DNA of 64,000 nucleotides from an uncultured Acidimicrobiales bacterium. Lineage in GTDB: Bacteria > Actinomycetota > Acidimicrobiia > Acidimicrobiales > SZUA-35. Below, piece after piece: positions 2,068-38,134 of the stretch (positions within the stretch are counted from its first letter, which is position 1; each line of letters starts with the position of its first letter). The stretch is from the NCBI GenBank assembly GCA_937922805.1, contig CALAJV010000024.1, positions 1,942 through 65,941 on the forward strand, written 5' to 3'. The notes beneath the pieces are model-generated. The model was not told the DNA's origin, made no database searches, and saw nothing but the letters and a program-made list of their open reading frames with translations. The translations under genes were made by a program, and so were the position numbers.

Positions 2068-2283
2068 TCATTCGCGCTCGCCGACTTCAGAAGGAATGTC
2101 CGGGCCGCCGAAGTCATGGCTAAGAGCTTCAGGAGTGGTTGTCGTCGCCACCGACTCTTGCTCTAGTTGTTTCGCTAGCCGCCGATTGGCCACCCAAAGC
2201 AGCAAGCCGATCAGCGCCAATGGTGCCACCACAAGAAGGATCTCGTCCCAACCTCCCTGGTGTGCGAAAAATGGCGCAGACAT
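2068..2283 (-). CDS. small single-pass membrane protein, unknown function
   Basis: 71-aa ORF ending 11 nt upstream of the MFS gene on the same strand. It has one hydrophobic span (ILLVVAPLALIGLLLWV). No recognisable family. Confidence 0.4.
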   Translation of the reverse strand: MSAPFFAHQGGWDEILLVVAPLALIGLLLWVANRRLAKQLEQESVATTTTPEALSHDFGGPDIPSEVGERE

Positions 2284-2408
2284 AGCTTCCAGCGTAGAGG
2301 CTTAACAAGGTAACGGAGGCAACGGAGTCGACTTTCAAACCCCCGTACGTCGGGCGTCACACCCCCGTCGGATGAGCTATCGACCGAGCAAATCCAGTAG
2401 ATTTGTAG

Positions 2409-2852
2409 GTGATGCCTGACCAGTCACCAATTGCTGACTTTGATACCGATCAAAGCACCGCTGACAACCAATCAGCCGACAACCAATCAGACGAAACAGT
2501 TTCGTCCTCAGCTAATGCTGGACAAGGTGATGCGAGTGCTAGCTCAACAACTGATTCCCTGGTTGGAGCAACGAGTGGTGAGTTCTACGATGCGGTGGCT
2601 CAAGTAGTCAAGATAATTCGGCCAGCGGTGCAAGCCGATCAGGGCGACATTTTCCTTCGAGGTGTCGACGAAGATACCGGTGTTGTCTCCGTCGAGCTTG
2701 TAGGAGCCTGCATTACCTGCCCCGCCTCATCACAAACGTTGAAGCAAGGCCTAGAACGAATCCTTAGCCAACGAGTCGAAGGTGTAACTTCGGTGGTTCA
2801 TGTGGGGGAAGCGTTGGCCGGATACGAAGACGGCACCGCCGTTTCGCTCTAG
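2409..2852 (+). CDS. NifU C-terminal (Nfu-type) Fe-S cluster assembly domain protein
   Basis: The C-terminal half carries the Nfu-like core with CxxC (GACITCPAS) and ...TLKQGLERIL. The N-terminal ~70 aa are D/S/Q-rich low complexity. Starts GTG 2409 / ATG 2412. Confidence 0.8.
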   Translation: MMPDQSPIADFDTDQSTADNQSADNQSDETVSSSANAGQGDASASSTTDSLVGATSGEFYDAVAQVVKIIRPAVQADQGDIFLRGVDEDTGVVSVELVGACITCPASSQTLKQGLERILSQRVEGVTSVVHVGEALAGYEDGTAVSL

Positions 2853-2923
2853 TTGAGCAAACCAGCGATGCCGTAGCACTACGTTTCTGGTATCCATCGT
2901 TTCCGATGGTACAGCGATGCGAA

Positions 2924-3289
2924 TTAGCGGCTCTTCAACGCATCTCGAATCTCAGCTAGCAGTACCTGATCAGGTGTCTCAGCTGGTGCGGTGTTGGCGC
3001 CAGCCTTAGCTAAGGCTTTAACGATCATGAAGACGATGAATGCGATCATGATGAACGTAATCAGAGCGTTAACCATTGGGCCGAGCTGAATACCAGCGAT
3101 GTTCATATTGCCCGCGATGTCGTAAACGCCATCATCGTTTGGTGTCATACCGAACACCTTGGCAACGATCGAGAGAACAAGGGCCACAACGGCGTCGACC
3201 ATGGGGAGAAAGGCCAACGCAAGAACGAGCCCGACAGCGATCGGGATTACGTTGAACTTCTCCAGAAACTCGCGAAACTCTTTTAACAT
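2924..3289 (-). CDS. mscL: large-conductance mechanosensitive channel MscL
   Basis: 121 aa with N-terminus MLKEFREFLEKFNVIPIAVGLVLA, two TM helices and typical MscL length. Confidence 0.9.
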   Translation of the reverse strand: MLKEFREFLEKFNVIPIAVGLVLALAFLPMVDAVVALVLSIVAKVFGMTPNDDGVYDIAGNMNIAGIQLGPMVNALITFIMIAFIVFMIVKALAKAGANTAPAETPDQVLLAEIRDALKSR

Positions 3290-3480
3290 AAGTGCCTCCT
3301 ACAGGCATTGATTACAAACATTGACTACAGACGTGAACCGAGCGGTGTAGCGACTGTGCCCTCCGCACAATGATTCGCTTAGCCAGTGTTACCTAAAAAG
3401 GGCGTAGGAGCGTGAATGGTCGCATAAAAGCGACCTAAAGAGCGGCTAGTAATTGTAGCTCTGGACTGATATCGCCAGTT

Positions 3481-3921
3481 TTAGCCGTTTTCGAGTTTTA
3501 TTTTTAGGCGTTTAAGATTTCGTTTCCAAATACCGCCCAGAACTGGCCGGGCCACAAAGGCACCTAAGGGTCCAGCCAGCCACCATGGAAATGAAAGATC
3601 TTCCCACCAGACGAACAGCGTTCGCTCGTCGCCTTGTGGGGTCAGAACGAATTCACCCTCGCCGGTAACAACTCCGACGTGGCGAACTCCCATTCGTCTT
3701 TCGTCTTCCCAGCTGGTTATGGTCATTTCGTCGGTCAGCTTGATTGGGCCAACCACCGTGTCGCACTCAAACGACGTCCCGACACCTTCTGTTTGGTCAG
3801 TGGTGAACCGGATGGCAGCGGCGTCAGCCATCCACTCGACGTGAGAAGAAATATCACGAAGGTAAGCCCAAACTTGGTCTGGGGTTTTGTCGATAACAAC
3901 GGAAACGGTTACTGCTGGCAC
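3481..3921 (-). CDS. SRPBCC-family (polyketide cyclase/dehydrase-like) protein
   Basis: 146 aa. The pattern ...DKTPDQVWAYLRDISSHVEWM... and a C-terminal amphipathic helix are typical of SRPBCC/START-like ligand-binding proteins. Confidence 0.7.
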   Translation of the reverse strand: MPAVTVSVVIDKTPDQVWAYLRDISSHVEWMADAAAIRFTTDQTEGVGTSFECDTVVGPIKLTDEMTITSWEDERRMGVRHVGVVTGEGEFVLTPQGDERTLFVWWEDLSFPWWLAGPLGAFVARPVLGGIWKRNLKRLKIKLENG

Positions 3922-3959
3922 CCAACCGATAGTACGGCATCACCACAAGGGTTGACGGA

Positions 3960-4811
3960 TCAGAAGGCTCGGTAAACCGACACATGCGTTGTCGACGTCG
4001 GAAGATACGGGTTCTCATCCCACGACGAGAACCGTTCGACCAGTTGAAGGCCAACCGTACTAGCGAGGTGGTCGAGCTGGGTCGGATTTAGCCACCGCAA
4101 CATCCAGGGTCTGATTCTGACCCCGGTGTCAGACACCTCAATATGTTGACCGGTCATCGTTTGATCGCTACGAATTTGCGTTGCCGACACAGTGACATCG
4201 GATGGTCCAACTGTGCGCACCCCAATCGATTGGGTTGGCTCGTTGGGCAAGTCGTCGACTGTTAACGCCTCCAGAATAACAACACCCCCTTCGGCTACTA
4301 GCCTTCTTGCTTCACTCAAGACCAAACGGTGGCCGTCGTCGTCGACCACGTTGAACAGCGTGTTGAAGGCGATAACCACGGCGGCAATAGAGGTGGTTGG
4401 CGTGGGACGAAGAGGGATCGAGCGCATATCGGCAGCCGCTAGTCCGGTGGCCTGAGCGAGATTCGAGCTGACGTATCGACTTAGCATCGGCAACGAGGCA
4501 TCAATTCCAACCACCGACAGTCCGGCATCGCCCATTGGTCCGGCAAGTCGTCCGGTTCCAACTCCAAACTCGATCACAACCTCACCCGTCGGCTCGCTCG
4601 GCGTTTCAGTTGTTGGGTTGTTGATCTTGTTGCTTTGTGACTCATGGCTAGCGCGAACTCGGCGAGCGATGAAGCTAGCTGCAGCGTCAGCGTCAGAAAC
4701 GTCGTGGTACCACTGATCGTAGACATCGACAAAGGCTTGGCCGTAGGCAGTCGGTGAGCGAAGATTGAGCGCAGGCGCGTCATCGCTGTCTATCGCTTCA
4801 TCGTTGCCCAT
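3960..4811 (-). CDS. class I SAM-dependent methyltransferase
   Basis: Motif I VIEFGVGTGRL is followed by acidic VGIDAS and AFNTLFNV (post-I/II motifs). Confidence 0.75.
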   Translation of the reverse strand: MGNDEAIDSDDAPALNLRSPTAYGQAFVDVYDQWYHDVSDADAAASFIARRVRASHESQSNKINNPTTETPSEPTGEVVIEFGVGTGRLAGPMGDAGLSVVGIDASLPMLSRYVSSNLAQATGLAAADMRSIPLRPTPTTSIAAVVIAFNTLFNVVDDDGHRLVLSEARRLVAEGGVVILEALTVDDLPNEPTQSIGVRTVGPSDVTVSATQIRSDQTMTGQHIEVSDTGVRIRPWMLRWLNPTQLDHLASTVGLQLVERFSSWDENPYLPTSTTHVSVYRAF

Positions 4812-4832
4812 CGCCCCACACTACAATCATCT

Positions 4833-5177
4833 GTGATGAGTATCAGAGTTGAAAGAGCCGACCTGCCAGCCGAGATCGTAAAACGAGGAGCTGGCTTTTT
4901 GCTGACGTCGATCATGGACAGTAGGCCACACGCTGCTCATCTGCAGATCGAGGTGGCGGTCGAAGGCGATCAGGTCGAAATTCGCACTCCAGCAGGCCGG
5001 ACCAGCAGAGCCAACTGTGACATGCAACCGTCGGTTACCATGCTCTGGCCCGCTACCAGCGAAGGAGATCACAGTCTCATCGTTGACGGAGAAGCCCGAC
5101 TCGACGGCGATAGTCACGTCATCGTCACGGTTCTCAACGCTATCCTTCATCGTCCGGCGCCACCGGCTAATCCCTAA
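4833..5177 (+). CDS. small PPOX-class (pyridoxamine 5'-phosphate oxidase-like / split-barrel) protein, tentative
   Basis: 114 aa. The pattern GFLLTSIMDSRPHAAHL...LIVDGEARL...AILHRPA resembles split-barrel flavin/F420-binding proteins. It competes with an antisense 107-aa ORF that looks less protein-like. Confidence 0.45.
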   Translation: MMSIRVERADLPAEIVKRGAGFLLTSIMDSRPHAAHLQIEVAVEGDQVEIRTPAGRTSRANCDMQPSVTMLWPATSEGDHSLIVDGEARLDGDSHVIVTVLNAILHRPAPPANP

Positions 5178-5225
5178 TCAGAAATTGCCTCATCACCAAT
5201 CTGTCAAGTTCGGTAGCCTGGAGTA

Positions 5226-6428
5226 ATGGCCTTCTACCTAGACAACGCAGCAACCACGGGCATTCGTCCGTCTGCGCTTGAGGTGATGGTGCCCCTCCTG
5301 GCCGAAGAGTTTGGTAACCCGTCTGGGGCACACCGGATGGCCCGAGCAGCAAACCGGGTACTCGATGACGCCCGAGAAACGATGGCGGCTTGTCTTGGAG
5401 CCGAACCAGGAGAAATAATCTTTACCAGTGGTGGAACTGAGTCCGACAATTTAGCGATCCAAGGTTCTCTGACCGCTCGCCCTGGAATTGCGGTTTGTTC
5501 TGCCATCGAGCACCATGCGGTGCTCGACCCGGTAGAACACGCAGGCGGTCGGGTTGTCCGAGTGAACGAAGATGGCCTAGTCGATCTCGATCATTTGGCT
5601 GATTGCTTGGCCGGATCCGAAGATGTGCCGGTGTCAGTGGTGTCGATAATGTTGGCCAACAACGAGACCGGCGTAATTCAACCACTCGACCAGATCGAGC
5701 GGCTTGTTCGTAAACTCGCCCCCGAAGCGCTACTCCACACCGACGCCGTGCAGGCAATGTGTTGGCTCGACGTAGCCGAACTAACCGCCCGAGCCGACCT
5801 AGTTTCGGTGAGCGCACACAAATTTGGCGGACCCAAAGGAGTCGGGGTGATGGTGGCTCGATCGGGCAAAAACGTTGAGCCGCTATTCCGGGGCGGTGGC
5901 CAGGAGCGAGGCCGACGCGGCGGCACTCACAACGTTGCCGGCATCGCAGCTATGGCGGTGGCTGCCAAAGAGACGGTGGCGGAGCGGGCAACTCAAGTGC
6001 CGCGGGTGTCGGAGCTACGAGATCGCTTGGCTGACGGGATCGTCAGCACGGTCGAGGGAGTTTTCGAGACCGGCGTTACCTCTCCTGCTGAGCTTCAACC
6101 CAGCGATAGCACCAAGAATGATAAAGCTAAGAATGAAGCAAAACGAATCAACAAGATAGCGAACATCTGTCATCTGTGCTTCGCTGATGTTGAGAGCGAA
6201 GCGCTGCTCTTCTTGTTGGAAAAAGACGACATAATGGCGTCCGCCGCCTCCTCTTGCTCTAGCGGGGCAATTGAGCCAAGCCACGTCCTAACTGCCATGG
6301 GATTTGATCGACAATTGGCCTTTGGTTCGCTGCGGCTATCTCTCGGTTATGGCACCACTGAAGCCGATGTTGAGGCAGCCCTCAACACAATTCCCCCAGC
6401 TGTTCAACGGCTTCGGGAGCGAGCGTAG
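5226..6428 (+). CDS. iscS: cysteine desulfurase (IscS/NifS family, PLP-dependent)
   Basis: 400 aa with the PLP-Lys motif SVSAHKFGGPKGVG and an active-site Cys loop SSCSSGAIEPSHVL. It lies immediately upstream of mnmA, as in other Actinomycetota. A K/N-rich AT-rich insert lies at ~6085-6160. Confidence 0.9.
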   Translation: MAFYLDNAATTGIRPSALEVMVPLLAEEFGNPSGAHRMARAANRVLDDARETMAACLGAEPGEIIFTSGGTESDNLAIQGSLTARPGIAVCSAIEHHAVLDPVEHAGGRVVRVNEDGLVDLDHLADCLAGSEDVPVSVVSIMLANNETGVIQPLDQIERLVRKLAPEALLHTDAVQAMCWLDVAELTARADLVSVSAHKFGGPKGVGVMVARSGKNVEPLFRGGGQERGRRGGTHNVAGIAAMAVAAKETVAERATQVPRVSELRDRLADGIVSTVEGVFETGVTSPAELQPSDSTKNDKAKNEAKRINKIANICHLCFADVESEALLFLLEKDDIMASAASSCSSGAIEPSHVLTAMGFDRQLAFGSLRLSLGYGTTEADVEAALNTIPPAVQRLRERA

Positions 6429-28460: not shown

Positions 28461-29297
28461 ATGGCGCTTCCTCCCCAATCGGAAATCCCTACCTGCTACC
28501 GGCATCCGAACGTCTCATCTGCCGTTGGCTGCCAACGGTGCGCCAAGCCGATTTGTGCTAATTGTATGTCAGCTGCATCGGTCGGACACCATTGTCCCGA
28601 TTGTGCAAAAGGGGGAAGTCAGCAGATCTTCACCGCTCGAAACATGCCACAGTCGCAACCAGTGCTGACTATTGGAATCATGGCCACCTGCGTCGCCGCC
28701 TACCTCGGACAGCGAGCCACCCAAGGTGCGTTAACTAACGATGGTTTCTTGATCGGTCCAGCGGTTGCCAATGGCGAATACTGGCGGATCATAACCTCGG
28801 CATTTCTCCACGGCGGGATGATGCATATCCTCTTTAACTTGTGGGCACTTTGGGTGTTTGGCAAACCGTTAGAAGAGGCGGTTGGTCGCCTCAAGTTCGG
28901 AATTATCTATCTCGCAGGCCTCCTAGGCGGTGCGTTTGCTGTTGTGGCCTTCAATTTCTTAACACCAACCCTCGGAGCCTCGGGCGCCGTTCTCGGTTGC
29001 GCCGGAGCATTAGCGGCGCTGCTTTGGGCCCGAGGGATTAAGATCTGGGAGACCCCACTTGGGTTCATCTTCCTGCTCAACCTCGGACTTCCGCTTTTGC
29101 CGGGGACGAACATTTCCTTTTGGGGTCACTTTGGGGGAATGGTCGGAGGATTCCTCGCCGGTTGGTTGCTTTACCTGCTGCCAAGTCAGCGCCGCGACTT
29201 GCCAATGGCCGGTCTCATCGGTGCCGGTGCAGCGTTGTGTGTCGCGTTGGCGGTTGGAACCGTCTTGATCGCCAACAACGGCGGGCTTGTCGGTTAG
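28461..29297 (+). CDS. rhomboid-family intramembrane serine protease with N-terminal Cys-rich zinc-ribbon
   Basis: N-terminal CYRHP..CQRCAKPICANC...CPDC. Rhomboid motifs WRIITSAFLHGGMMHILFN, catalytic GASGAVLG and HFGGMVGG. Confidence 0.85.
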   Translation: MALPPQSEIPTCYRHPNVSSAVGCQRCAKPICANCMSAASVGHHCPDCAKGGSQQIFTARNMPQSQPVLTIGIMATCVAAYLGQRATQGALTNDGFLIGPAVANGEYWRIITSAFLHGGMMHILFNLWALWVFGKPLEEAVGRLKFGIIYLAGLLGGAFAVVAFNFLTPTLGASGAVLGCAGALAALLWARGIKIWETPLGFIFLLNLGLPLLPGTNISFWGHFGGMVGGFLAGWLLYLLPSQRRDLPMAGLIGAGAALCVALAVGTVLIANNGGLVG

Positions 29298-29310: not shown

Positions 29311-30003
29311 TCAGCCGAGGTGTTGGCTCAGAAACTGCTGAGTTCGTTCCCAGGCTATGTCGGCTGCCGCTTGATCGAAGGTATCTCCATCTTCAAAGAA
29401 CCAATGCTTGGTATCGGGGTACAGATGGAACTCGGTTTCCCGCCCACCGAGACGAATGAAAGACTCGGTTACCACCCGGTCTTCTTCGCTCACCATGTGA
29501 TCGTCGCCGGCGTAGTGGCCTTGGTAGGAAGCAGTGGCGTCATCGAAGTCGATGGATTGCGTTCCGTAGAACGTAACAACAGCCCCTACTTCGGTGGTGA
29601 GGCGAGCCGAAAGCCACAATGCCATTGAGGCTCCCATCGAAAAACCGATCACTGCAATAGGCTCGGATGCGTCTTTGGAAGCCGCTCGAACAGTTTGGGC
29701 TGACGACATCACCAGTCCACTAAGTTCATCGGGGTCGACGCTGGCTAGTGCCTCTTGGCCTTCAGCTTCATTCGCTGGCGTTTGGCCAGCGAGTAAGTCT
29801 GGGGCTAAAGCGGTGTAGCCGCTTTGGGCTAGGCGGCCGCAGAATTCCTTTACCCATGGGGTTAGCCCCCACCAAGAATGAAGAACGAGCACCCCGGGAC
29901 CGGGACCACCAGCAGGGTCGATCAAAAACGCCTCGCCAGCCTTGGCTTTGGTAAAGGGGGAGCTAGATTCGGACGACTCAGAGCTAGACATATCCTGGTG
30001 CAC
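29311..30003 (-). CDS. dienelactone hydrolase family alpha/beta hydrolase
   Basis: PGVLVLHSWWGLTPWVKEFCGRLAQSGYTALAPDL, a nucleophile elbow GFSMGA and a C-terminal ...HWFFE. Confidence 0.85.
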   Translation of the reverse strand: MHQDMSSSESSESSSPFTKAKAGEAFLIDPAGGPGPGVLVLHSWWGLTPWVKEFCGRLAQSGYTALAPDLLAGQTPANEAEGQEALASVDPDELSGLVMSSAQTVRAASKDASEPIAVIGFSMGASMALWLSARLTTEVGAVVTFYGTQSIDFDDATASYQGHYAGDDHMVSEEDRVVTESFIRLGGRETEFHLYPDTKHWFFEDGDTFDQAAADIAWERTQQFLSQHLG

Positions 30004-30376: not shown

Positions 30377-31084
30377 TTGCGTGAGTTCCTTGAAATAGTG
30401 ACCAGTCTGCCAACCGTAATTTTCACCGTGTCGTTGTTGGTAAGCCTTGGCTACTGGATGATCTCAACTGCCCTAGGATTCGGCGACTCTGGACTCGACG
30501 GGGATCTAGAACTCGACGCCGATTTTGAAGTAGACCTTGATGTTGGAACCGATATAGAGCCCGATATCGAGCTCGAAAGCTCGATCGATTCTGGAGTCGG
30601 TGGTGGGGGACTTGAATTTGGGTCGTTCATGACCATGATCGGTCTTCACCTGATGCCGCTTAGTCTCGTTTTCACCGTGACGTCACTTGTTGGGTGGCTT
30701 CTCTCGATAACGATGGCAGTGGCGGTCGGCAATTACACCAGCGTCGGCCTCTTGATTGGGATCGGTATCTTTGTGTTGGCCCTCTTCGGCGGTTTCATCG
30801 CGTCCGGTCGGGTAGCTCGATTAGTTGCCCCGATATTTCGGATGCAACGAGCGGCCGGTCATCAGCAGCTAGTCGGACGGATGTGCGTACTACGAACCGG
30901 GCGGGTCGACCAAGAATTCGGTCAAGCAGAAGTAGTCGATAATGATGGCGGGTCTCACCTCGTCCAAGTCCGGTGCCGGGAACAGAACCAGTTAAAGGCC
31001 GGTGACCAAGCACTTTTAGTTGACGTGGACGACGGAGTTTTTTACTTGTCAGATGACATCGACGTTCTTCGTGACAACACGTAG
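30377..31084 (+). CDS. YqiJ/NfeD-like membrane protein (membrane anchor plus C-terminal OB-like soluble domain)
   Basis: TTG start preceded by AGAAGAGGGAG. N-terminal TM, an acidic linker (DGDLELDADFEVDLDVGTDIEPDIELE), 2-3 further TMs, and a C-terminal beta-rich tail (GRMCVLRTGRVDQEFGQAEVV...VQVRC...GDQALLVDV). This is the same layout as E. coli YqiJ, and it precedes a flotillin gene. Confidence 0.7.
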   Translation: MREFLEIVTSLPTVIFTVSLLVSLGYWMISTALGFGDSGLDGDLELDADFEVDLDVGTDIEPDIELESSIDSGVGGGGLEFGSFMTMIGLHLMPLSLVFTVTSLVGWLLSITMAVAVGNYTSVGLLIGIGIFVLALFGGFIASGRVARLVAPIFRMQRAAGHQQLVGRMCVLRTGRVDQEFGQAEVVDNDGGSHLVQVRCREQNQLKAGDQALLVDVDDGVFYLSDDIDVLRDNT

Positions 31085-31183: not shown

Positions 31184-33175
31184 ATGAGTACGGTCCTAAT
31201 TTCAATCGCAGCAGCAGTGTTGATCGCCCTTGCGGTCATCTTCGCTGTCGGATTTGCGGTTACCCGACTTTATCGAAAGGTTCCACAAGGCAAGGCCTTG
31301 CTGGTTAGCACCACAAAAGCAGTTGTGGTTACCTTCACAGGTCGAGTAGTTCTGCCAATCCTCCACAAAGCCGAAATCATGGATATTTCGGTCAAAACCA
31401 TCGAGATCGATCGTCGCGGCACCGAGGGTCTGATTTGTGAAGACAACATCCGAGCCGACATCAAGGTCAACTTCTTCGTCCGGGTGAACAAAGCGGAAGA
31501 AGATGTCATCAAAGTTGCCCAAGCCATCGGGACCGAGCGGGCATCAGACCCTGTCACCCTCGAAGAGCTGTTTGCGGCCAAGTTCTCAGAAGCGCTGAAA
31601 ACTGTCGGTAAGCAAATGGAATTCGTGTCGCTCTACACAGAGCGAGCAACGTTTCGCGACCGGATCATAGAAGTTATCGGCACAGACCTCAACGGTTACG
31701 CTCTTGAAGATGTCGCCATTGACTACCTCGAACAGACGCCTCTAGACCAGCTCGACACCAACAACATTCTCGATGCTCAAGGTATTCGCAAAATTACCGA
31801 ACTCACCGCGGTGCAACACGTCGCCACTAACAATGCGTCAAACGATGAGCGCAAGCACATCACAGCCAAGAACGTTGAGACGAGAGAGGCCGTTCTCGAA
31901 CTTGAGCGTCAACAAGCCGACGCTGAGGCCCGCCAGCAACGTGAGATCGCCGCCGTCCGGGCCCGAGAAGAAGCAACCACGGCCGCAGTGGAGGCTGAAG
32001 AACGACTCAAAGCCGAAATGGCCAATATCGCAACCGCTCAGAAGCTTGGGGTTGAAGAAGAGAATCAGCAACGAGAAATCGAGACCGCATTCAAAAATCG
32101 TGAGCGCGTGATTGCCATCGAACAAGAACGAGTCGAAAAAGCTCGCGAACTCGAGTTCATGAGCCGAAAAGTTGAGACTCTCGCAGCCGAGAAATCATTG
32201 GAGCAAGAAAAGGCCGCCATTGCTGATATCCGACGGGGGCGTGTTTCGGTCGAGAGGACTGTGGCCGAGGAAGAGGAGCAAATCGCAACCTTGAGGATTG
32301 TCGAAGAGGCAAACCGTCAACGAGAAGCAATCGTCATCGCGGCCGAGGGAGACGCTCAGGGAGCGTTCGTTCGAGACATCAAAATGGCAGAAGCAGCCGA
32401 GCAGGCGGCGGAATCTCGAGCCAAAGAGAAAATAACTATGGCTAGGGCTGAGCTTGAAGCATCTGAGATGTCGACCAAAGCCGAAGTGCGATTGGCCGAT
32501 GGTGCTCAAGCAGCAGCTGCAGCCGAGGGCTTAGCTGAAGCTGAGGTGCTCGAAGCTCGAGCTGTTGCTCTAGAAAAGCAAGGAATGGCTGATGTTCGGG
32601 TCGAGCAGGCCCGAGCCGATGCAGTTCGAGAAGTAGGACAAGCAGAAGCGGAAAAGTTGCGAGAAGCCGGTCTGGCCGAAGCCCAAATTGTCGAAGCGAA
32701 ACTTCGAGGCGAAGCAGCGGGTCTTTCCGACAAAGCAGCTGCAATGCGAGAAATGGAAGGTGTTGGTCAAGAACACGAAGAGTTTGTACGTCAACTCGAA
32801 GCCGACACCAAGGTCCGAATGGCGGAAGTTGACGCCCGAGTCGGTGTAGCTACTGCCCAAGCCACCGCCATGCAAGCTGGCTTCGAGTCAGCCAACATCG
32901 AGATCGTCGGCGGGTCGGATATGTTTATCGACCGCATGGTCGACTCGATCTCTGCCGGCAAGAGGGTAGACAAGTTTATTGAGAACTCAGACGCGGTGGC
33001 CGGGATTGCGGAACCGTACCTCAACGGTGAGAAAGATCTCGTTGCCAAGCTAAGCGAAGCGATCGCTGGCCTCGGAGCCGATGGCATCCGCGACCTCTCT
33101 GTTGCGGAGCTACTACGCCAGATCAGTTCTGGTACTGAGCCCGGCGCTACGTCCGGAAATGGTCACAGCGAATAA
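31184..33175 (+). CDS. flotillin-family SPFH protein (YqiK/FloT-like)
   Basis: 663 aa with an N-terminal TM, an SPFH core (RLYRKVPQGKALLV...ICEDNIRADIKVNFFVRV...) and a long E/A/R/Q-rich coiled coil. It aligns by eye with E. coli YqiK. Confidence 0.9.
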   Translation: MSTVLISIAAAVLIALAVIFAVGFAVTRLYRKVPQGKALLVSTTKAVVVTFTGRVVLPILHKAEIMDISVKTIEIDRRGTEGLICEDNIRADIKVNFFVRVNKAEEDVIKVAQAIGTERASDPVTLEELFAAKFSEALKTVGKQMEFVSLYTERATFRDRIIEVIGTDLNGYALEDVAIDYLEQTPLDQLDTNNILDAQGIRKITELTAVQHVATNNASNDERKHITAKNVETREAVLELERQQADAEARQQREIAAVRAREEATTAAVEAEERLKAEMANIATAQKLGVEEENQQREIETAFKNRERVIAIEQERVEKARELEFMSRKVETLAAEKSLEQEKAAIADIRRGRVSVERTVAEEEEQIATLRIVEEANRQREAIVIAAEGDAQGAFVRDIKMAEAAEQAAESRAKEKITMARAELEASEMSTKAEVRLADGAQAAAAAEGLAEAEVLEARAVALEKQGMADVRVEQARADAVREVGQAEAEKLREAGLAEAQIVEAKLRGEAAGLSDKAAAMREMEGVGQEHEEFVRQLEADTKVRMAEVDARVGVATAQATAMQAGFESANIEIVGGSDMFIDRMVDSISAGKRVDKFIENSDAVAGIAEPYLNGEKDLVAKLSEAIAGLGADGIRDLSVAELLRQISSGTEPGATSGNGHSE

Positions 33176-33205
33176 TCCGCCTCCCAACGACAAGTTACGA
33201 GTCCA

Positions 33206-36200
33206 ATGACTGATAGTAAGTCAGAAGTCGAACCTCACGAGGAGCCTGGTGCGGACAACCAGGCTCCGGTCGAGGACGCCTCGCCAGAATCGCATCAAGC
33301 CATAAATCCCGACGGGCAAGCCTCTACAGAAGCTGGAGCGAGCCAAGATACTTCGGTAGCCCAGGGAACCTATCAGCTTCTCCGAGGCCGACTAGAAAAA
33401 GCGGCCCAAGAGCTAGCTGACCGATCTCTAGCCTTGAACGCGGCCAGGCTTGAAGCCTTCGGTTCGTCACAGCTTGATTTGGCCGCCACCGAACGAGTTC
33501 GAACTGAGAACAACGTTGTACCCCGCGATGTTGCGGCGGTCGATGACCAATTGATCATGGCCTACAACGCCCAAGCTGGAATCAGGAGCGAAATACGGCC
33601 CGAAGATGTCTTCAGCGTTCATCACCTTGAAGAAGTCGACGGTGAGGTGGTCATAAACCCTAATCCCGATGGCTTGGCTGGGTCCGCTCTAGACGACGAC
33701 AAGTTCCGACGAGATTTCCAAGAGCTCCACGCCTACTTCAAAAACGCTCGTGTCCAACAGGTGTATCGCTCCGGTCAAAAGTTGTTGGCTGTATTTCGAA
33801 CCGGCACCGCCAGCAACGATATTCGAGTGTTGCGATGGGAAATAAGACCGGACGGTGGGCTCCAGTATCTGGATGACAGAGGCGATCGAGATCACCGGTT
33901 TCCGCCAAGTCACGACGTTGATTGGTTGCAGTCCACTCGTGCTGATCACGTCGATGGTCGATTCATTTCGGTCCTCGACCGGGTGTTCGTCGGCCCTCTT
34001 AACGGAAAGATCGAACTTCGAATAGAAGATGGTTCGCCCGACGGAGAACTACTGCTAACCGAGCCGGTCGGCCAAAGTGATCAAGCACTTCAAGACTGCG
34101 AAGTAGCCTATGCCAAGGCCGGAGATCTGATAATCCTGCGAGTACTGCCGTACGGCGAAACAGTAACCCGCTACTACGTCGTCAATCTGTTGATGAACTC
34201 GGCGGTCCGCATTGATTCGCTCGGTGCCGCGTTTAGGCAACTTCCAGAAGGACATGGTCTGATCTTTCCCGATGGGATGTATCTCCGAACTGGAGAGGTC
34301 CGGACTTTCGATCTTGACCCATCAGGCATGGAACTGTTGGAAGTAGAACACTCGCCCAACGGTGAAGACGTTCTCTACGTGTTTCATCAGGTTGAGGACG
34401 GTCGGTCGATTCTGCTGCCGTACAACGTTGTCCGGCAAGAAATAACTAACCCAATATGGTGTCACGGCCACTGCACCTTCGCTGATGGTGGAATGGTCGT
34501 GTTCCGTGAGGAGCCAGAACCAACCAGGGTCCACCCTATTCAGCTCTGGATAACCCCGTTCTGTAGCGACGAGTGGTACGCCGATCAACCTCGTCAGCAA
34601 ACCCCGCTAGATCGAATAGGCAATCCGGCGTTAGTGACCGGCATCGCCGACGCTCTAGCACTCACTCGAGCCGTATCCGATGTCGAACCGTCGGCTGCCA
34701 TGTACGGAGACCTGTTAGGTTCGGCGGGACGAACCCTTGACACTCATCACTGGCTGAGCTCGCAAGATGTTGGAGATCTAGCGTCGAAAATCAATGAAAT
34801 TCGACTCGTCGCTGAGCAGGTGATCGATGAATTCGAACGGGTGCAAAGTGTTCGCAAAGCGTCGGCCGAAGCGCTAGCGGAAGCGGAAGTGTCGCTCGAT
34901 GAAATCTTCGAACAGCGGAAAATTGCGCCACCTCAACGTACCGAAGATTACATTGGTCAGCTCAGCGAGTTTCGGCGATCTATCGGCCATCTGCATACCC
35001 TTCGAGAGCGCCGAGAAATTGACGTCGCTCGAATCGATGAACTGACCGCGACCGCTCAACAAGGCCACGATAGTTTGGCTCAAGCCGCGGCTCGTCACCT
35101 TTCTACTGATGGTGCCTTTACCCGTTACCACGATGGTTTGGTCGAGCTGGCCGATTTATCGGCTGATCTGAACTCGTCAGTAGCGGCAACTGCGTTAATG
35201 GCCAAGGTCGACACCATCGGCGACTCCATGGACATGGTGGCTGGCACGGTTAGTGATCTCGTGGTTGAAGATCCACGAGTCCGGACGTCGGTGTTAGAAC
35301 AGGTCTCGAACGTTTTGGCTGAGCTCAACCGGGTCCGGGCCGGAGTTGAGATCAAACTAGAGACTCTGATCGAATCAGAAACTGGTGCTGCCTTTGCTAC
35401 CGAGCTCGGTTTGTTCGGGCAAAGTATCGCCACGTCGTTAGCTCGTGCCGATACCCCTGAAGCTTGCGACGATGCGCTAGCTCGACTTTTGCTGCAACTC
35501 GAACAACTGGAAACTTCTGCCCCTCGAACCGATAGCCAGCTCGTAGAGCTAGAGCAACGTAGAGATCAGGTAACGGAAGCACTCACGGCTCGACGGCAGA
35601 AACTTGTCGATGATCGTCAACAACGAGCCGATCGACTGGTTTCAACTGGCACCAGAACCTTGGAACGAGTGGGTGAGCGATCGAGCTCGCTCGATTCAGC
35701 CGACGACATAAACGGGTTTTTCGCCGCCGACCCCATGGTGGTTCGGGTTCGTAGCTTAGTTGAACAGCTTCGAGAAATGGGTGAACCAGTTCGGGCTGAC
35801 GAGCTAGCAGCCCGATTAGGGAGCGCTCAAGACGGTGCCATGAGAGCGCTTCGAGATCGACAAGATTTGTTCGACGGCGACGCGGTCAAGCTTGGACTTC
35901 ATCGATTTAGCGTCGATGATAGAAAGCGAGAACTGACACTAGTTCCGGTCGACGGCGCCCTCAACGCCGTGCTGACGGGTACCGATCTGCGATTTTCGTT
36001 AGACCAATCGGAACTCAACAAGTACGAGGGGCTTTGGGATACGCCGCTTCCATCCGAGAGTCCTGCTGTTTACCGGTCAACCTTCTTGGCTGGCGATATT
36101 CTCGCCACGCTGGCCGCGGCCGAAATCGAGGATCTTCTGTCCACCAAGGTAACCGACGACCATGACCCTGTCTTAGAACTCATTCGTTCCGAGGTCGACG

Positions 36201-38134
36201 GTCGACTTGACGAAGGTTATGACCGTGGTGTCCACGATTTTGATGCTGCTGCAATCTTGCGGGCAATTGGGGGAAAGGCTTTGGAGGCTGGACCGTTACT
36301 TACCAGCGGTGAAGATAGAGCCAAGGCCCAGCTGGCCTGGGCCCATCAATTCGGTGAGTCTGATCGGGACCTGTGGACCAATAGGGGATCGGCGGCTGCC
36401 GACCTAGACCCTGATCCCGAAGCGATGGCGATGTTGGTTTCGGAATTGGCAGAGGCGCTCGACATCTCGACAGTTCAGGCCAATTACCTTCTCGTCGAGC
36501 TTTCGACTGCTGGCCCGCTGTCCTTCGCCCAGACAACTCAAGCTGAGGTTCTGACTGCGGACGTTGCCCGACAAGACGAGGTCAAAGCAGCGCTAAAGGC
36601 ACTGCAATCAGATCCGAACGGAGCAAGCGCGGTACTAACCGGATTCGTCCATCGAGAGGCTGAACGGGCAGATCTGTTGCACCTGGTTCCTGAAGTCACC
36701 GTCAGTCTGCTCACTCCCGATCTAGACCGACATGCAATCGAGATTGATCTCTCATTCGAAGTCACGGGTATCAACGGCCGCCACGAAACTATCGATTCAG
36801 GAACGCTCGCTGGTCGTGTTGATGAAGTGATGACGACAGTCATGGTCCACCGTTCACAAGTCTTGCCCGAACACAAAAAATTCACGGCCACCCGTCGCCA
36901 AGTAGTAACCGAACTTCGCCAAACGCTTCGAGTCGACGATTTAGAACCGAAAGTGCCGGAAGGATTCGTTCGCAACCAGCTAATCGACAAGGTGTATTTA
37001 CCTCTGATCGGCGACAACTTGGCTCGACAGATCGGAACGGTTGATGACTCAGCGGGGGCCCGGAGCGGACTGCTGATGTTGCTATCGCCTCCCGGTTACG
37101 GCAAGACGACCTTGGTTGAGTATGTGGCCGACCGGCTGGGTATGGCCTTGGTAAAGATCTCTGGTCCCGGTCTCGGTCACGAAGTAACTTCGCTCGACCC
37201 CGAACAAGCTCCAAGTGCAACATCGGCCCGCGAAATCGAACGGATCAACCTATCCTTCTCGCTAGGTAGCAACGTGTTGCTCTACCTCGACGACATTCAG
37301 CACACAAACCCAGAGTTCTTGCAACGATTCATTTCGCTGTGCGATGGCCAACGCCGGATCGAAGGCGTTTGGGACGGAGCAGCACGAACGTTTGATCTTC
37401 GAGGCAAACGGTTTGCGGTAGTCATGGCCGGTAATCCGTACACCGAATCGGGGCAGAGGTTCCGAGTGCCCGACATGCTCGCTAACCGGGCCGACACTTA
37501 CAACCTTGGTGACGTTCTAAGTGGCAACGACGAGTTGTTCGCTAGGAGCTACCTTGAGAATGCGTTGACGGCCAACAAAGTCACAGCGCCGCTCTCCGGT
37601 CGAGATCCGGGCGACTTCGAACGCTTGGTCAGAGCGGCAGAAGGCCACCCTCTTGGAGAATCTGAACTTAGTCACTCGTACTCGCCAACGGAGATGACCG
37701 AGATAATAACCGTGTTGCGACATCTGAAGCAGGTGCAATCCGTGGTGCTGGCCGTCAACCGCCAATATATCTCGTCGGCTGCGTCTGATGATACGTATCG
37801 AACCGAACCGTCGTTCTTGCTTCAGGGCTCGTATCGAAACATGGTTCGAATGGCGTCGCGGATCTTGCCGGCAATGACTCCCGACGAAGTGGAGACAATA
37901 ATCGATGAACACTACGTTGCTGAGTCGCAGGCTTTGACTGGAGCGGCTGAGGCCAATTTGTTGAAGTTGGCAGAGCTCAGAGACAAACTAACCGAACAAG
38001 AACAAACTCGGTGGCTAGAAATTCTAGCTACGTTCCGACGACAGAAACGCCTTGGCGGAGACGAGCGGGATCCGGCTACCCGAGTGGTCGCTGCTATCGA
38101 GGGCATCGGCGAAGCACTGCGGCAACAATCCTAG
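33206..38134 (+). CDS. giant (1,642 aa) soluble protein with a single C-terminal MoxR/midasin-like AAA+ ATPase module; function unknown
   Basis: Uninterrupted 4.9-kb ORF starting 30 nt after the flotillin stop. Walker A is SPPGYGKT (nt 37085-37108) and Walker B is VLLYLDD (37274-37294). The sensor-1 region is AGNPY (37427-37441), followed by VPDMLANRAD (to ~37495). Confidence 0.85.
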   Translation: MTDSKSEVEPHEEPGADNQAPVEDASPESHQAINPDGQASTEAGASQDTSVAQGTYQLLRGRLEKAAQELADRSLALNAARLEAFGSSQLDLAATERVRTENNVVPRDVAAVDDQLIMAYNAQAGIRSEIRPEDVFSVHHLEEVDGEVVINPNPDGLAGSALDDDKFRRDFQELHAYFKNARVQQVYRSGQKLLAVFRTGTASNDIRVLRWEIRPDGGLQYLDDRGDRDHRFPPSHDVDWLQSTRADHVDGRFISVLDRVFVGPLNGKIELRIEDGSPDGELLLTEPVGQSDQALQDCEVAYAKAGDLIILRVLPYGETVTRYYVVNLLMNSAVRIDSLGAAFRQLPEGHGLIFPDGMYLRTGEVRTFDLDPSGMELLEVEHSPNGEDVLYVFHQVEDGRSILLPYNVVRQEITNPIWCHGHCTFADGGMVVFREEPEPTRVHPIQLWITPFCSDEWYADQPRQQTPLDRIGNPALVTGIADALALTRAVSDVEPSAAMYGDLLGSAGRTLDTHHWLSSQDVGDLASKINEIRLVAEQVIDEFERVQSVRKASAEALAEAEVSLDEIFEQRKIAPPQRTEDYIGQLSEFRRSIGHLHTLRERREIDVARIDELTATAQQGHDSLAQAAARHLSTDGAFTRYHDGLVELADLSADLNSSVAATALMAKVDTIGDSMDMVAGTVSDLVVEDPRVRTSVLEQVSNVLAELNRVRAGVEIKLETLIESETGAAFATELGLFGQSIATSLARADTPEACDDALARLLLQLEQLETSAPRTDSQLVELEQRRDQVTEALTARRQKLVDDRQQRADRLVSTGTRTLERVGERSSSLDSADDINGFFAADPMVVRVRSLVEQLREMGEPVRADELAARLGSAQDGAMRALRDRQDLFDGDAVKLGLHRFSVDDRKRELTLVPVDGALNAVLTGTDLRFSLDQSELNKYEGLWDTPLPSESPAVYRSTFLAGDILATLAAAEIEDLLSTKVTDDHDPVLELIRSEVDGRLDEGYDRGVHDFDAAAILRAIGGKALEAGPLLTSGEDRAKAQLAWAHQFGESDRDLWTNRGSAAADLDPDPEAMAMLVSELAEALDISTVQANYLLVELSTAGPLSFAQTTQAEVLTADVARQDEVKAALKALQSDPNGASAVLTGFVHREAERADLLHLVPEVTVSLLTPDLDRHAIEIDLSFEVTGINGRHETIDSGTLAGRVDEVMTTVMVHRSQVLPEHKKFTATRRQVVTELRQTLRVDDLEPKVPEGFVRNQLIDKVYLPLIGDNLARQIGTVDDSAGARSGLLMLLSPPGYGKTTLVEYVADRLGMALVKISGPGLGHEVTSLDPEQAPSATSAREIERINLSFSLGSNVLLYLDDIQHTNPEFLQRFISLCDGQRRIEGVWDGAARTFDLRGKRFAVVMAGNPYTESGQRFRVPDMLANRADTYNLGDVLSGNDELFARSYLENALTANKVTAPLSGRDPGDFERLVRAAEGHPLGESELSHSYSPTEMTEIITVLRHLKQVQSVVLAVNRQYISSAASDDTYRTEPSFLLQGSYRNMVRMASRILPAMTPDEVETIIDEHYVAESQALTGAAEANLLKLAELRDKLTEQEQTRWLEILATFRRQKRLGGDERDPATRVVAAIEGIGEALRQQS

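Follow-up and report, generated by a model that had tools for sequence, protein, structure and literature searches.

A giant propeller-bearing AAA+ ATPase of the DUF3686-DUF7902-AAA family, encoded in a conserved operon with a YqiK-type flotillin

Scaffolds of SPFH proteins recur as partners of AAA+ proteins, as in the HflK/C-FtsH, prohibitin/m-AAA protease and SLP2-YME1L pairs. A similar combination of SPFH scaffold and AAA+ protein, here coupled by an operon, is encountered in an uncultured Acidimicrobiales bacterium (assembly GCA_937922805.1), in a stretch of 64,000 nucleotides of contig CALAJV010000024.1 (positions 1,942 to 65,941 of the forward strand). This stretch is called the window, and all nucleotide coordinates for it are counted from its first letter. 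In the window, a gene for a very large ATPase, referred to below as the giant ATPase, follows a gene for a YqiK-type flotillin. In contrast to the known SPFH/AAA+ protease pairs, the giant ATPase lacks a protease domain and a membrane anchor, and its AAA+ module belongs to another clade. It most likely acts on membrane scaffolds rather than in DNA repair, the process after which its family has been named in the databases.

The same operon has been described computationally by Ravi, Anantharaman et al. (mSystems 2024, PMC11237479), who reached the family through the neighbourhoods of PspA genes and proposed a role in membrane dynamics. According to that paper, the operon occurs with or without CesT/Tir-PspA genes, the abbreviated form is widespread, and DUF2170 (YjfI-like) belongs to the CesT/Tir superfamily; its supplementary table lists an example from Dokdonia as 'Betapropeller+Coiled-coil+AAA-ATPase'. 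The operon in the window corresponds to the abbreviated form, without CesT/Tir-PspA, and is otherwise the same in its essentials. The paper makes no mention of three features treated below, namely the D-D form of the Walker B motif, a small beta domain and a C-terminal helical domain. The operon consists of the following genes:

30377..31084, + strand: YqiJ/YuaF-type (short NfeD-like) membrane protein, 235 amino acids (aa), the first gene of the operon
31184..33175, + strand: YqiK-type flotillin (SPFH/band-7 plus coiled coil), 663 aa
33206..38134, + strand: giant ATPase, whole open reading frame, with Pfam DUF3686 (aa 69-515), DUF7902 (aa 637-717), AAA and AAA_5

The identity of the 663-residue protein is derived from an alignment of its orthologues with Escherichia coli YqiK (hhalign probability 99.9%, E=4.4e-32, 31% identity over 416 columns). 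Pfam gave no match to the copy in the window and matched Band_7 in two of 15 orthologues (best E 2.3e-9), and a profile of the flotillin-like protein had no match in the PDB. The protein has one transmembrane segment (aa 4-22). The 235-residue protein resembles the C-terminus of E. coli YqiJ (BLASTP E=5e-4) and the Pfam model YqiJ_OB (E=2.2e-4, under the gathering score), and it has four hydrophobic segments.

The giant ATPase is an intact, ordinary member of a known, uncharacterised family. Its frame starts with ATG and encodes 1,642 residues; PF12458 (DUF3686) is matched over its entire length (profile positions 1-448 of 448, aa 69-515, E=1.6e-156), followed by PF25472 (DUF7902; aa 637-717, E=1.7e-16) and a C-terminal AAA domain, and the same set is precomputed for the homologues. 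At least 594 species genomes, from Actinomycetota, Myxococcota, Gammaproteobacteria and Acidobacteriota, contain relatives, of which the closest is encoded in an Acidimicrobiales genome; at E<=1e-30, 323 clusters of the family were counted. Among the matches listed, full-length homologues have about 1,560-1,900 residues; a longer form, of 1,927-1,929 aa, is encoded at two Myxococcales loci (L060 and L075). Where homologues have a name, it is mostly 'DNA repair ATPase' (NCBI) among the matches listed. Other names are inconsistent, and include 'AAA family ATPase', 'MoxR-like ATPase', 'MoxR-like ATPase/exonuclease...' and 'Exonuclease VII small subunit' (e.g., P0054, P0066 and P0076). None of these database names rests on visible evidence.

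A preliminary description of this DNA, made by eye from the letters and their open reading frames, had considered a single AAA+ module at the end of so long a chain to be atypical. This view has to be abandoned, since the architecture is the norm of the family in those species genomes. The same description had raised the possibility of a gene fusion or an assembly artefact. The frame is neither, as 56 homologues are colinear with the window's protein and, apart from the N-terminal tail, show a gap fraction of about 0. Several relatives share a start that reads MTD[ST], so that the start codon has probably been placed correctly.

The link with flotillin was followed in 80 genome loci from the four phyla, which had been retrieved with peptides of the sensor-1 and arginine-finger motifs, and whose neighbouring genes were detected by tblastn. 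The flotillin gene lies directly upstream of the giant gene in 74 of the 80, and a YqiJ-like gene was detected upstream of the flotillin gene in 62. This synteny spans Actinomycetota, Myxococcota, Gammaproteobacteria and Acidobacteriota. For four of the six loci that lack a flotillin match (L037, L050, L062 and L071), the sequence upstream of the giant gene is very short or absent.

The layout of the protein was obtained from two AlphaFold2 models, each built from an alignment of 57 sequences. The N-terminal model covers aa 1-1200, with a mean predicted local distance difference test (pLDDT) score of 85.9 and a predicted TM-score (pTM) of 0.52; the C-terminal model covers aa 1180-1642 (pLDDT 84.9, pTM 0.71). 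Column conservation was counted at a threshold of >=95% in the alignment of the 56 homologues. The parts are as follows:

33206..33367, + strand: disordered acidic N-terminal tail, aa 1-54 (pLDDT <50 at aa 1-51)
33368..33460, + strand: single long helix, conserved, aa 55-85 (AlphaFold2; 8 of 31 columns conserved)
33476..34552, + strand: beta-propeller, aa 91-449, the core of Pfam DUF3686 (about 26 strands in AlphaFold2; Foldseek)
34568..35869, + strand: long-helix region A, aa 455-888, which includes DUF7902 at aa 637-717 (AlphaFold2)
35882..36001, + strand: small beta domain, aa 893-932 (five AlphaFold2 strands)
36074..37033, + strand: helical region B and pre-AAA helices, aa 957-1276 (AlphaFold2)
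37034..37510, + strand: AAA+ alpha/beta core, aa 1277-1435 (Foldseek, Pfam AAA and AAA_5)
37511..38131, + strand: lid (to about aa 1478) and C-terminal helical domain, aa 1481-1642 (AlphaFold2 helices)

A position check found the frame and all motifs quoted in the preliminary description where it had placed them, among them the N-terminal peptides YQLLRG...ARLE (56-83), ILRVLPYG... (310-329) and VLYVFHQ... (389-409). Its acidic, disordered N-terminus was borne out as well: residues 1-55 contain 21.8% Asp plus Glu and 1.8% Lys plus Arg, compared with 16.5% and 10.0% in the whole protein. The length of this tail ranges from 2 to 58 aa across the homologues and its sequence is unconserved. In one relative (P0006) the disordered tail contains five tandem copies of FQPDGPG, which shows how freely it evolves. 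The helix that follows is modelled with a block-mean pLDDT of 76 at its start and of 84-95 further on.

The beta-rich block that comes next had been thought to be either a propeller or a sandwich array, and the propeller is what the structure comparison supports. The propellers of DCAF1 (WDR domain, 8f8e_B, TM 0.40 on target), Vps18, PON1 and CyRPA all match at a Foldseek probability of 1.00, and the strand count of the model suggests six or seven blades. The description of aa ~480-1270 as helical holds in outline. Region A includes helices at 525-573, 690-747 and 776-826, and these three are 49-58 residues long; region B has helices at 957-1169 in the N-terminal model and at 1205-1241 and 1258-1276 in the C-terminal model. 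The region is not purely helical, since the small beta domain interrupts it with strands at 893-896, 899-902, 910-915, 918-923 and 929-932 and a conserved consensus, 'IRLGRHRFAV...DLTLVP...LTGTD'. A hidden second, degenerate AAA+ module was considered for aa 957-1276 and rejected, as this stretch is helical with isolated short strands only; it is also the least conserved of the structured parts. The models thus agree with the earlier view that there is one AAA+ module only.

Conservation is highest in the AAA+ core (77 of 159 columns) and next highest in the propeller (74 of 359). The map drawn by eye had not included the conserved helical domain in the last ~190 residues, in which 38 of 162 columns pass the threshold. 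It contains an invariant R..EP...LQGSYR motif at aa 1532-1544 (R353, E355, P356, L360, Q361, G362, S363, Y364 and R365 in the numbering of the C-terminal fragment). The giant protein has no predicted transmembrane segment (maximum 19-residue hydropathy 1.30), and is probably soluble and cytoplasmic.

The AAA+ core runs from beta1 at residue 1290 to beta5 at 1432, within a module of about 1277-1480 in the model. Its motifs and structural landmarks are:

37085..37108, + strand: Walker A SPPGYGKT, aa 1294-1301 (K1300), after strand 1290-1293
37163..37216, + strand: insert between beta2 and helix 2, aa 1320-1337, GPxLGHxVTSLDP (model, alignment)
37274..37303, + strand: Walker B VLLYLDDIQH, aa 1357-1366 (D1362-D1363), with VLLYLD as strand beta3 (AlphaFold2)
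37355..37396, + strand: pre-sensor-1 beta-hairpin, aa 1384-1397 (AlphaFold2 strands 1384-1389 and 1392-1397)
37427..37495, + strand: sensor 1 AGNPY, aa 1408-1412 (N1410), and arginine-finger helix VPDMLANRAD, aa 1421-1430 (R1428) (AlphaFold2)

Conservation of these motifs was assessed in 117 homologues of at least 1,550 residues (42-84% identity), in the 80 loci and in 149 cluster representatives. Because the loci had been retrieved through sensor 1 and the arginine finger, only Walker A and Walker B are free of ascertainment bias in them; the regular expression for Walker B also accepted D-E. Walker A does not vary in any aligned sequence of the 117 homologues or at any of the 80 loci. D1362 is equally invariant in the aligned homologues, and the next position, 1363, is Asp in every one of them (117/117) and in 80/80 loci, where the motif always reads D-D-[IV]-Q-H. 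N1410, directly after strand 1403-1409 (the end of beta4), is Asn in 116 of the 117, the remaining sequence having a gap; R1428, which ends helix 1423-1428 (helix 4) before strand 1430-1432, is Arg in 117/117. The aligned columns of these homologues also keep the key residues of hhhhDD-IQHT, AGNPYTE and PDMLANRAD. Thus, the four residues that the preliminary description had proposed to check in homologues, K1300, D1363, N1410 and R1428, prove to be invariant.

The catalytic glutamate that follows the Walker B aspartate in the hhhhDE form is missing from the giant ATPase. That description had noticed Asp at this position; the reading was real, and homologues with a canonical D-E, which were sought, did not turn up in the 117 homologues, the 80 loci or the 149 cluster representatives. 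Nearly all of the representatives have D-D, the exceptions being P0240 (D-N) and P0266 (N-G). Judged from these alignments, the D-D Walker B is a hallmark of the family and no one-off. The two divergent members read LYLDNIQQ and LLYLNGIEH at Walker B, and a third, P0267, keeps D-D in the form LLLVDDIQY. These divergent members may be inactive paralogues or a sister group.

An Asp at the position of the catalytic base is known from the D2 domain of NSF (NSF-D2) and from DnaA, which are slow or regulated hydrolysers. Both share the hhhhDD Walker B with the giant ATPase, and in DnaA (LLIDDIQF) the similarity extends to DDIQ. However, NSF-D2 and DnaA belong to other clades, neither is among the top 50 Foldseek matches, and the initiator-specific insert of DnaA is not seen in the giant ATPase. 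By analogy, a slow or gated ATP cycle is plausible.

A further peculiarity is the 18-residue conserved insert at 1320-1337. Its GPxLGHxVTSLDP motif, which in the model occupies the position of pore loop 1 and the helix-2 insert, was present in 69 of the 80 loci; its G, P, L, G, S, D and P do not vary, and its H, V and T are almost invariant. An aromatic-hydrophobic-Gly pore loop was not found in the insert region, in either the alignment or the 80 loci.

That the ATPase belongs to the AAA+ superfamily, as had been proposed, is settled by Foldseek matches that reach E=8e-8, with 905 of them at E<=1e-3 for the C-terminal model, and the Pfam matches to AAA and AAA_5 are above their cut-offs. RuvB, MCM, NorQ, CbbQ2, FtsH and ClpB are all matched at a probability of 1.00 (E=8e-8 to 4e-6), the first four at E=8e-8 to 3e-7. 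Among the Foldseek matches, NorQ and CbbQ2 have the best TM-scores in both normalisations and the lowest root-mean-square deviation (9qh4 and 6l1q; TM 0.50-0.57 on target and 0.30-0.34 on query, deviation 7-10 A).

The place of the module within the superfamily is harder to define. Pfam AAA matches with 26.5 bits at aa 1291-1365, with the N-terminal half of the profile only. AAA_5 (PF07728, precomputed for most homologues) reaches 24.4 bits, the cut-off being 22, and is the only Pfam AAA model that spans nearly the whole core, with a match to profile positions 2-126 of 139. AAA_3, the model for MoxR proper, was not among the Pfam matches at E<=0.01. Clade placement by sequence and profile searches of the PDB failed, as the matches, which favoured Rix7, NVL, Rpt3 and p97 and also included RuvB, were confined to the P-loop region. 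NCBIfam has no model for the family and gave noise-level RuvB matches only. When the C-terminal 463 residues were compared with 1.84 billion representatives by phmmer, 856 proteins matched at E<=1e-3; the best 150 of these are all members of the family or fragments of members, with no other AAA+ clade among them.

A pre-sensor-1 hairpin distinguishes RuvB, MoxR, MCM and their relatives from the classical AAA proteins. The giant ATPase has such a hairpin between helix 3 and the sensor-1 strand (block-mean pLDDT ~87-91), and shares it with the MoxR class. The stretch from sensor 1 to the arginine finger, NP..(x)..G....P..L.NR, has a spacing that we take to be MoxR-like. The beta-hairpin that MoxR proteins have in helix 2 is matched in position by the conserved insert, which is modelled as a loop with short helices. 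In other respects the module departs from that class. MoxR proteins have D-E rather than D-D, and a partner with a VWA domain, which a Pfam scan did not find in the neighbouring genes. The giant ATPase also adds ~1,270 N-terminal residues and a C-terminal helical domain of ~160 residues, and the N-terminal half of its module scores better against classical AAA proteins. The preliminary assignment to the MoxR/McrB/midasin/dynein (AAA_5) clade is therefore partly upheld, by the AAA_5 match and the structural match to NorQ and CbbQ, and is softer than had been stated, given that classical AAA proteins yield the best scores for the N-terminal half of the module and AAA_3 is unmatched. On the model, the module is best described as a distinct AAA+ lineage of the pre-sensor-1-hairpin group, structurally nearest to MoxR/AAA_5 and outside MoxR proper.

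Taken together, the mechanism that we regard as reasonably probable is that the giant ATPase acts on flotillin scaffolds by nucleotide-driven remodelling or assembly. We infer ring formation, flotillin as the partner, a remodelling activity and slow hydrolysis. The conservation of Walker A, sensor 1 and the arginine finger points to an oligomeric, nucleotide-dependent machine in which the AAA+ modules would probably form a ring, since a conserved arginine finger of the trans type is meaningful only between the subunits of an oligomer. Carried on long helical arms, the N-terminal propellers would bind to the scaffold of flotillin and YqiJ at the cytoplasmic side of the membrane, and possibly also to PspA in some gammaproteobacteria. 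This partner is suggested by the fixed operon, and the membrane topology is in agreement, with no transmembrane segment in the giant protein, one in the flotillin and several hydrophobic segments in the YqiJ-like protein. ATP binding and probably slow hydrolysis would power the assembly, remodelling or disassembly of the scaffold, which are the likeliest activities because the ATPase has no protease domain. The action would be a rigid-body movement without threading of a polypeptide, since the absence of an aromatic pore loop and the MoxR-like fold disfavour threading. It is tempting to go further and to picture a ring with six propeller-tipped helical arms that grip the flotillin dome, a dedicated non-proteolytic motor that in some lineages would also serve PspA, with D-D as a slow, partner-gated switch; this more detailed picture is tentative and less likely than not.

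Several points weigh against action on flotillin scaffolds. Gene adjacency is no proof of physical interaction. At two Myxococcales loci, L060 (6404-12187) and L075 (6398-12187), the giant gene has no adjacent flotillin gene, and at one Sorangium locus, L018 (8-2146 and 6380-12040), ~4 kb with other genes separate the two. Many flotillin operons, including E. coli yqiJK, do without the ATPase, which must therefore be an accessory. With Asp in place of the catalytic base, the module might be a poor ATPase, and the geometry between the domains of the N-terminal model is uncertain, given its pTM of 0.52. Finally, literature searches found no experimental study of any member of the family.

The doubt about hydrolysis leads to the strongest alternative, in which the protein is a nucleotide-dependent assembly hub that binds ATP and hardly hydrolyses it, as NSF-D2 does, and forms a coat-like scaffold on or around flotillin domes. 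The invariant D-D, with D-E never seen, would suit such a role, as would the two members in which Walker B has degenerated further, the missing aromatic pore loop and the precedent of NSF-D2 and DnaA. In addition, the top whole-chain Foldseek matches are coat-type proteins with a propeller and a helical region, namely IFT-A, clathrin heavy chain, nucleoporins and Vps18, and these protocoatomers share with the giant ATPase an N-terminal propeller followed by a helical region. However, their TM-scores are only 0.07-0.13, and we treat the matches as a likeness in domain order only; protocoatomers are built of short helical hairpins and have no ATPase, unlike the giant ATPase with its helices of 49-58 residues. 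Moreover, neither the sensor-1 residue (N1410) nor that of the arginine finger (R1428) varies, and such residues are usually retained only if hydrolysis matters. We consider a hub of this kind unlikely.

A second alternative starts from PspA, the bacterial relative of ESCRT-III, and sees in the giant ATPase a disassembly ATPase for PspA polymers, similar to Vps4, with flotillin as a recruitment platform only. Vps4 and CdvC acting on ESCRT-III are a case of an AAA+ protein tied to a membrane-remodelling polymer, and here there is a genetic link: PspA and DUF2170 genes adjoin the operon in six of the 80 loci. In five of these they lie directly upstream on the same strand (L066, at 2248-6383, L033, L061, L068 and L070) and in one, L042, they are upstream on the opposite strand; the hosts are Pseudomonas, Gilliamella, Oleiphilaceae and Cellvibrionaceae (PspA/IM30, PF04012, E=2e-54). 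The family was itself reached through PspA (PMC11237479), and in Bacillus subtilis the SPFH protein YdjI is reported to bring PspA to the membrane (PMC8581546). Against this, all six loci are gammaproteobacterial, so that the explanation fits those loci alone, and the 64-kb window has no PspA gene. Unlike Vps4 and CdvC, which combine an MIT domain with a classical AAA module, the giant protein has no MIT-like domain, and its module falls outside the classical Vps4 clade, as judged from the pre-sensor-1 hairpin and the best matches to NorQ, CbbQ and RuvB. This alternative is improbable.

The family name implies a third alternative, a DNA-repair ATPase of the kind of the coiled-coil ATPases SMC, Rad50 and SbcC, which we regard as very improbable. 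It has on its side the text of the Pfam entry PF12458 ('ATPase involved in DNA repair'), the NCBI name, a weak PADLOC match of the helical region to LmuB (E=4.8e-4) and the presence of RuvB among the best Foldseek matches of the module. Yet there is no split ABC-type head, as Walker A and Walker B lie 60 residues apart in one C-terminal module, and the N-terminus is a propeller, unlike that of SMC, Rad50 or SbcC. The conserved neighbourhood consists of membrane proteins and contains no nuclease, DNA-binding domain or repair gene. The LmuB match falls within coiled coil, which is prone to compositional matches, and the likeness to RuvB is that of the generic AAA+ fold (TM 0.22-0.30 on query, under NorQ). 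Literature searches found no paper that supports the name, which may go back to coiled-coil similarity with proteins of the SMC/SbcC type. A STAND-type conflict or anti-phage sensor NTPase, with the propeller as the sensor, is just as remote. In its favour are the large size of the protein, the pairing of a repeat domain with an NTPase, and hhhhDD, the Walker B form common among STAND NTPases; but the repeats of the giant protein are N-terminal and not C-terminal, R1428 is invariant, the structural neighbours are ring AAA+ proteins, the Pfam scan has no NACHT or NB-ARC, PADLOC makes no defence assignment beyond noise for the protein or its neighbours (its IetA matches span the P-loop only), and the operon, fixed across phyla in a housekeeping and membrane neighbourhood, is unlike a variable defence island.

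The surroundings of the operon in the window do not share its conservation. The rhomboid, dienelactone hydrolase, MatE, BrkB/YihY and FMN-dependent dehydrogenase genes are not conserved with it. Two of them lie upstream:

28461-29297, + strand: rhomboid protease gene, two genes upstream of the flotillin operon
29311-30003, - strand: dienelactone hydrolase family gene (PF01738, E=1e-36), divergent from the operon

The rhomboid was considered as a partner, by comparison with the mitochondrial SLP2-PARL-YME1L complex, and was rejected; it is near the operon in only 1/80 loci, and its position is probably a coincidence. The 373-base gap between the dienelactone hydrolase gene and the yqiJ-like gene is the likely promoter region. 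A sigma-70 scan of this gap found nothing, and since promoter and terminator scans gave no excess over shuffled sequence, the ends of the operon are set by gene spacing alone. There is no clear Shine-Dalgarno sequence in the 30-base gap at 33176-33205 (…ccgcctcccaacgacaagttacgagtccaATG) before the ATG at 33206, and the giant gene may be translationally coupled or translated from a weak site.

Nothing in this account is specific to the window, and its significance is that of the family. Neither domain content nor gene context supports the name 'DNA repair ATPase', which is likely to lead annotation astray. A distinct AAA+ lineage would be defined by the invariant Asp together with the conserved GPxLGHxVTSLDP insert and the lack of an aromatic pore loop. 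The function, assembly and disassembly of bacterial flotillins are still unsettled, and a large ATPase fixed beside yqiK-type flotillin genes in hundreds of species offers an experimentally untouched handle on them. If the motor of ring and arms is real, it would give bacterial flotillins an energy-dependent cycle, and bacteria would have in it a counterpart of uncoating or Vps4-type machines.

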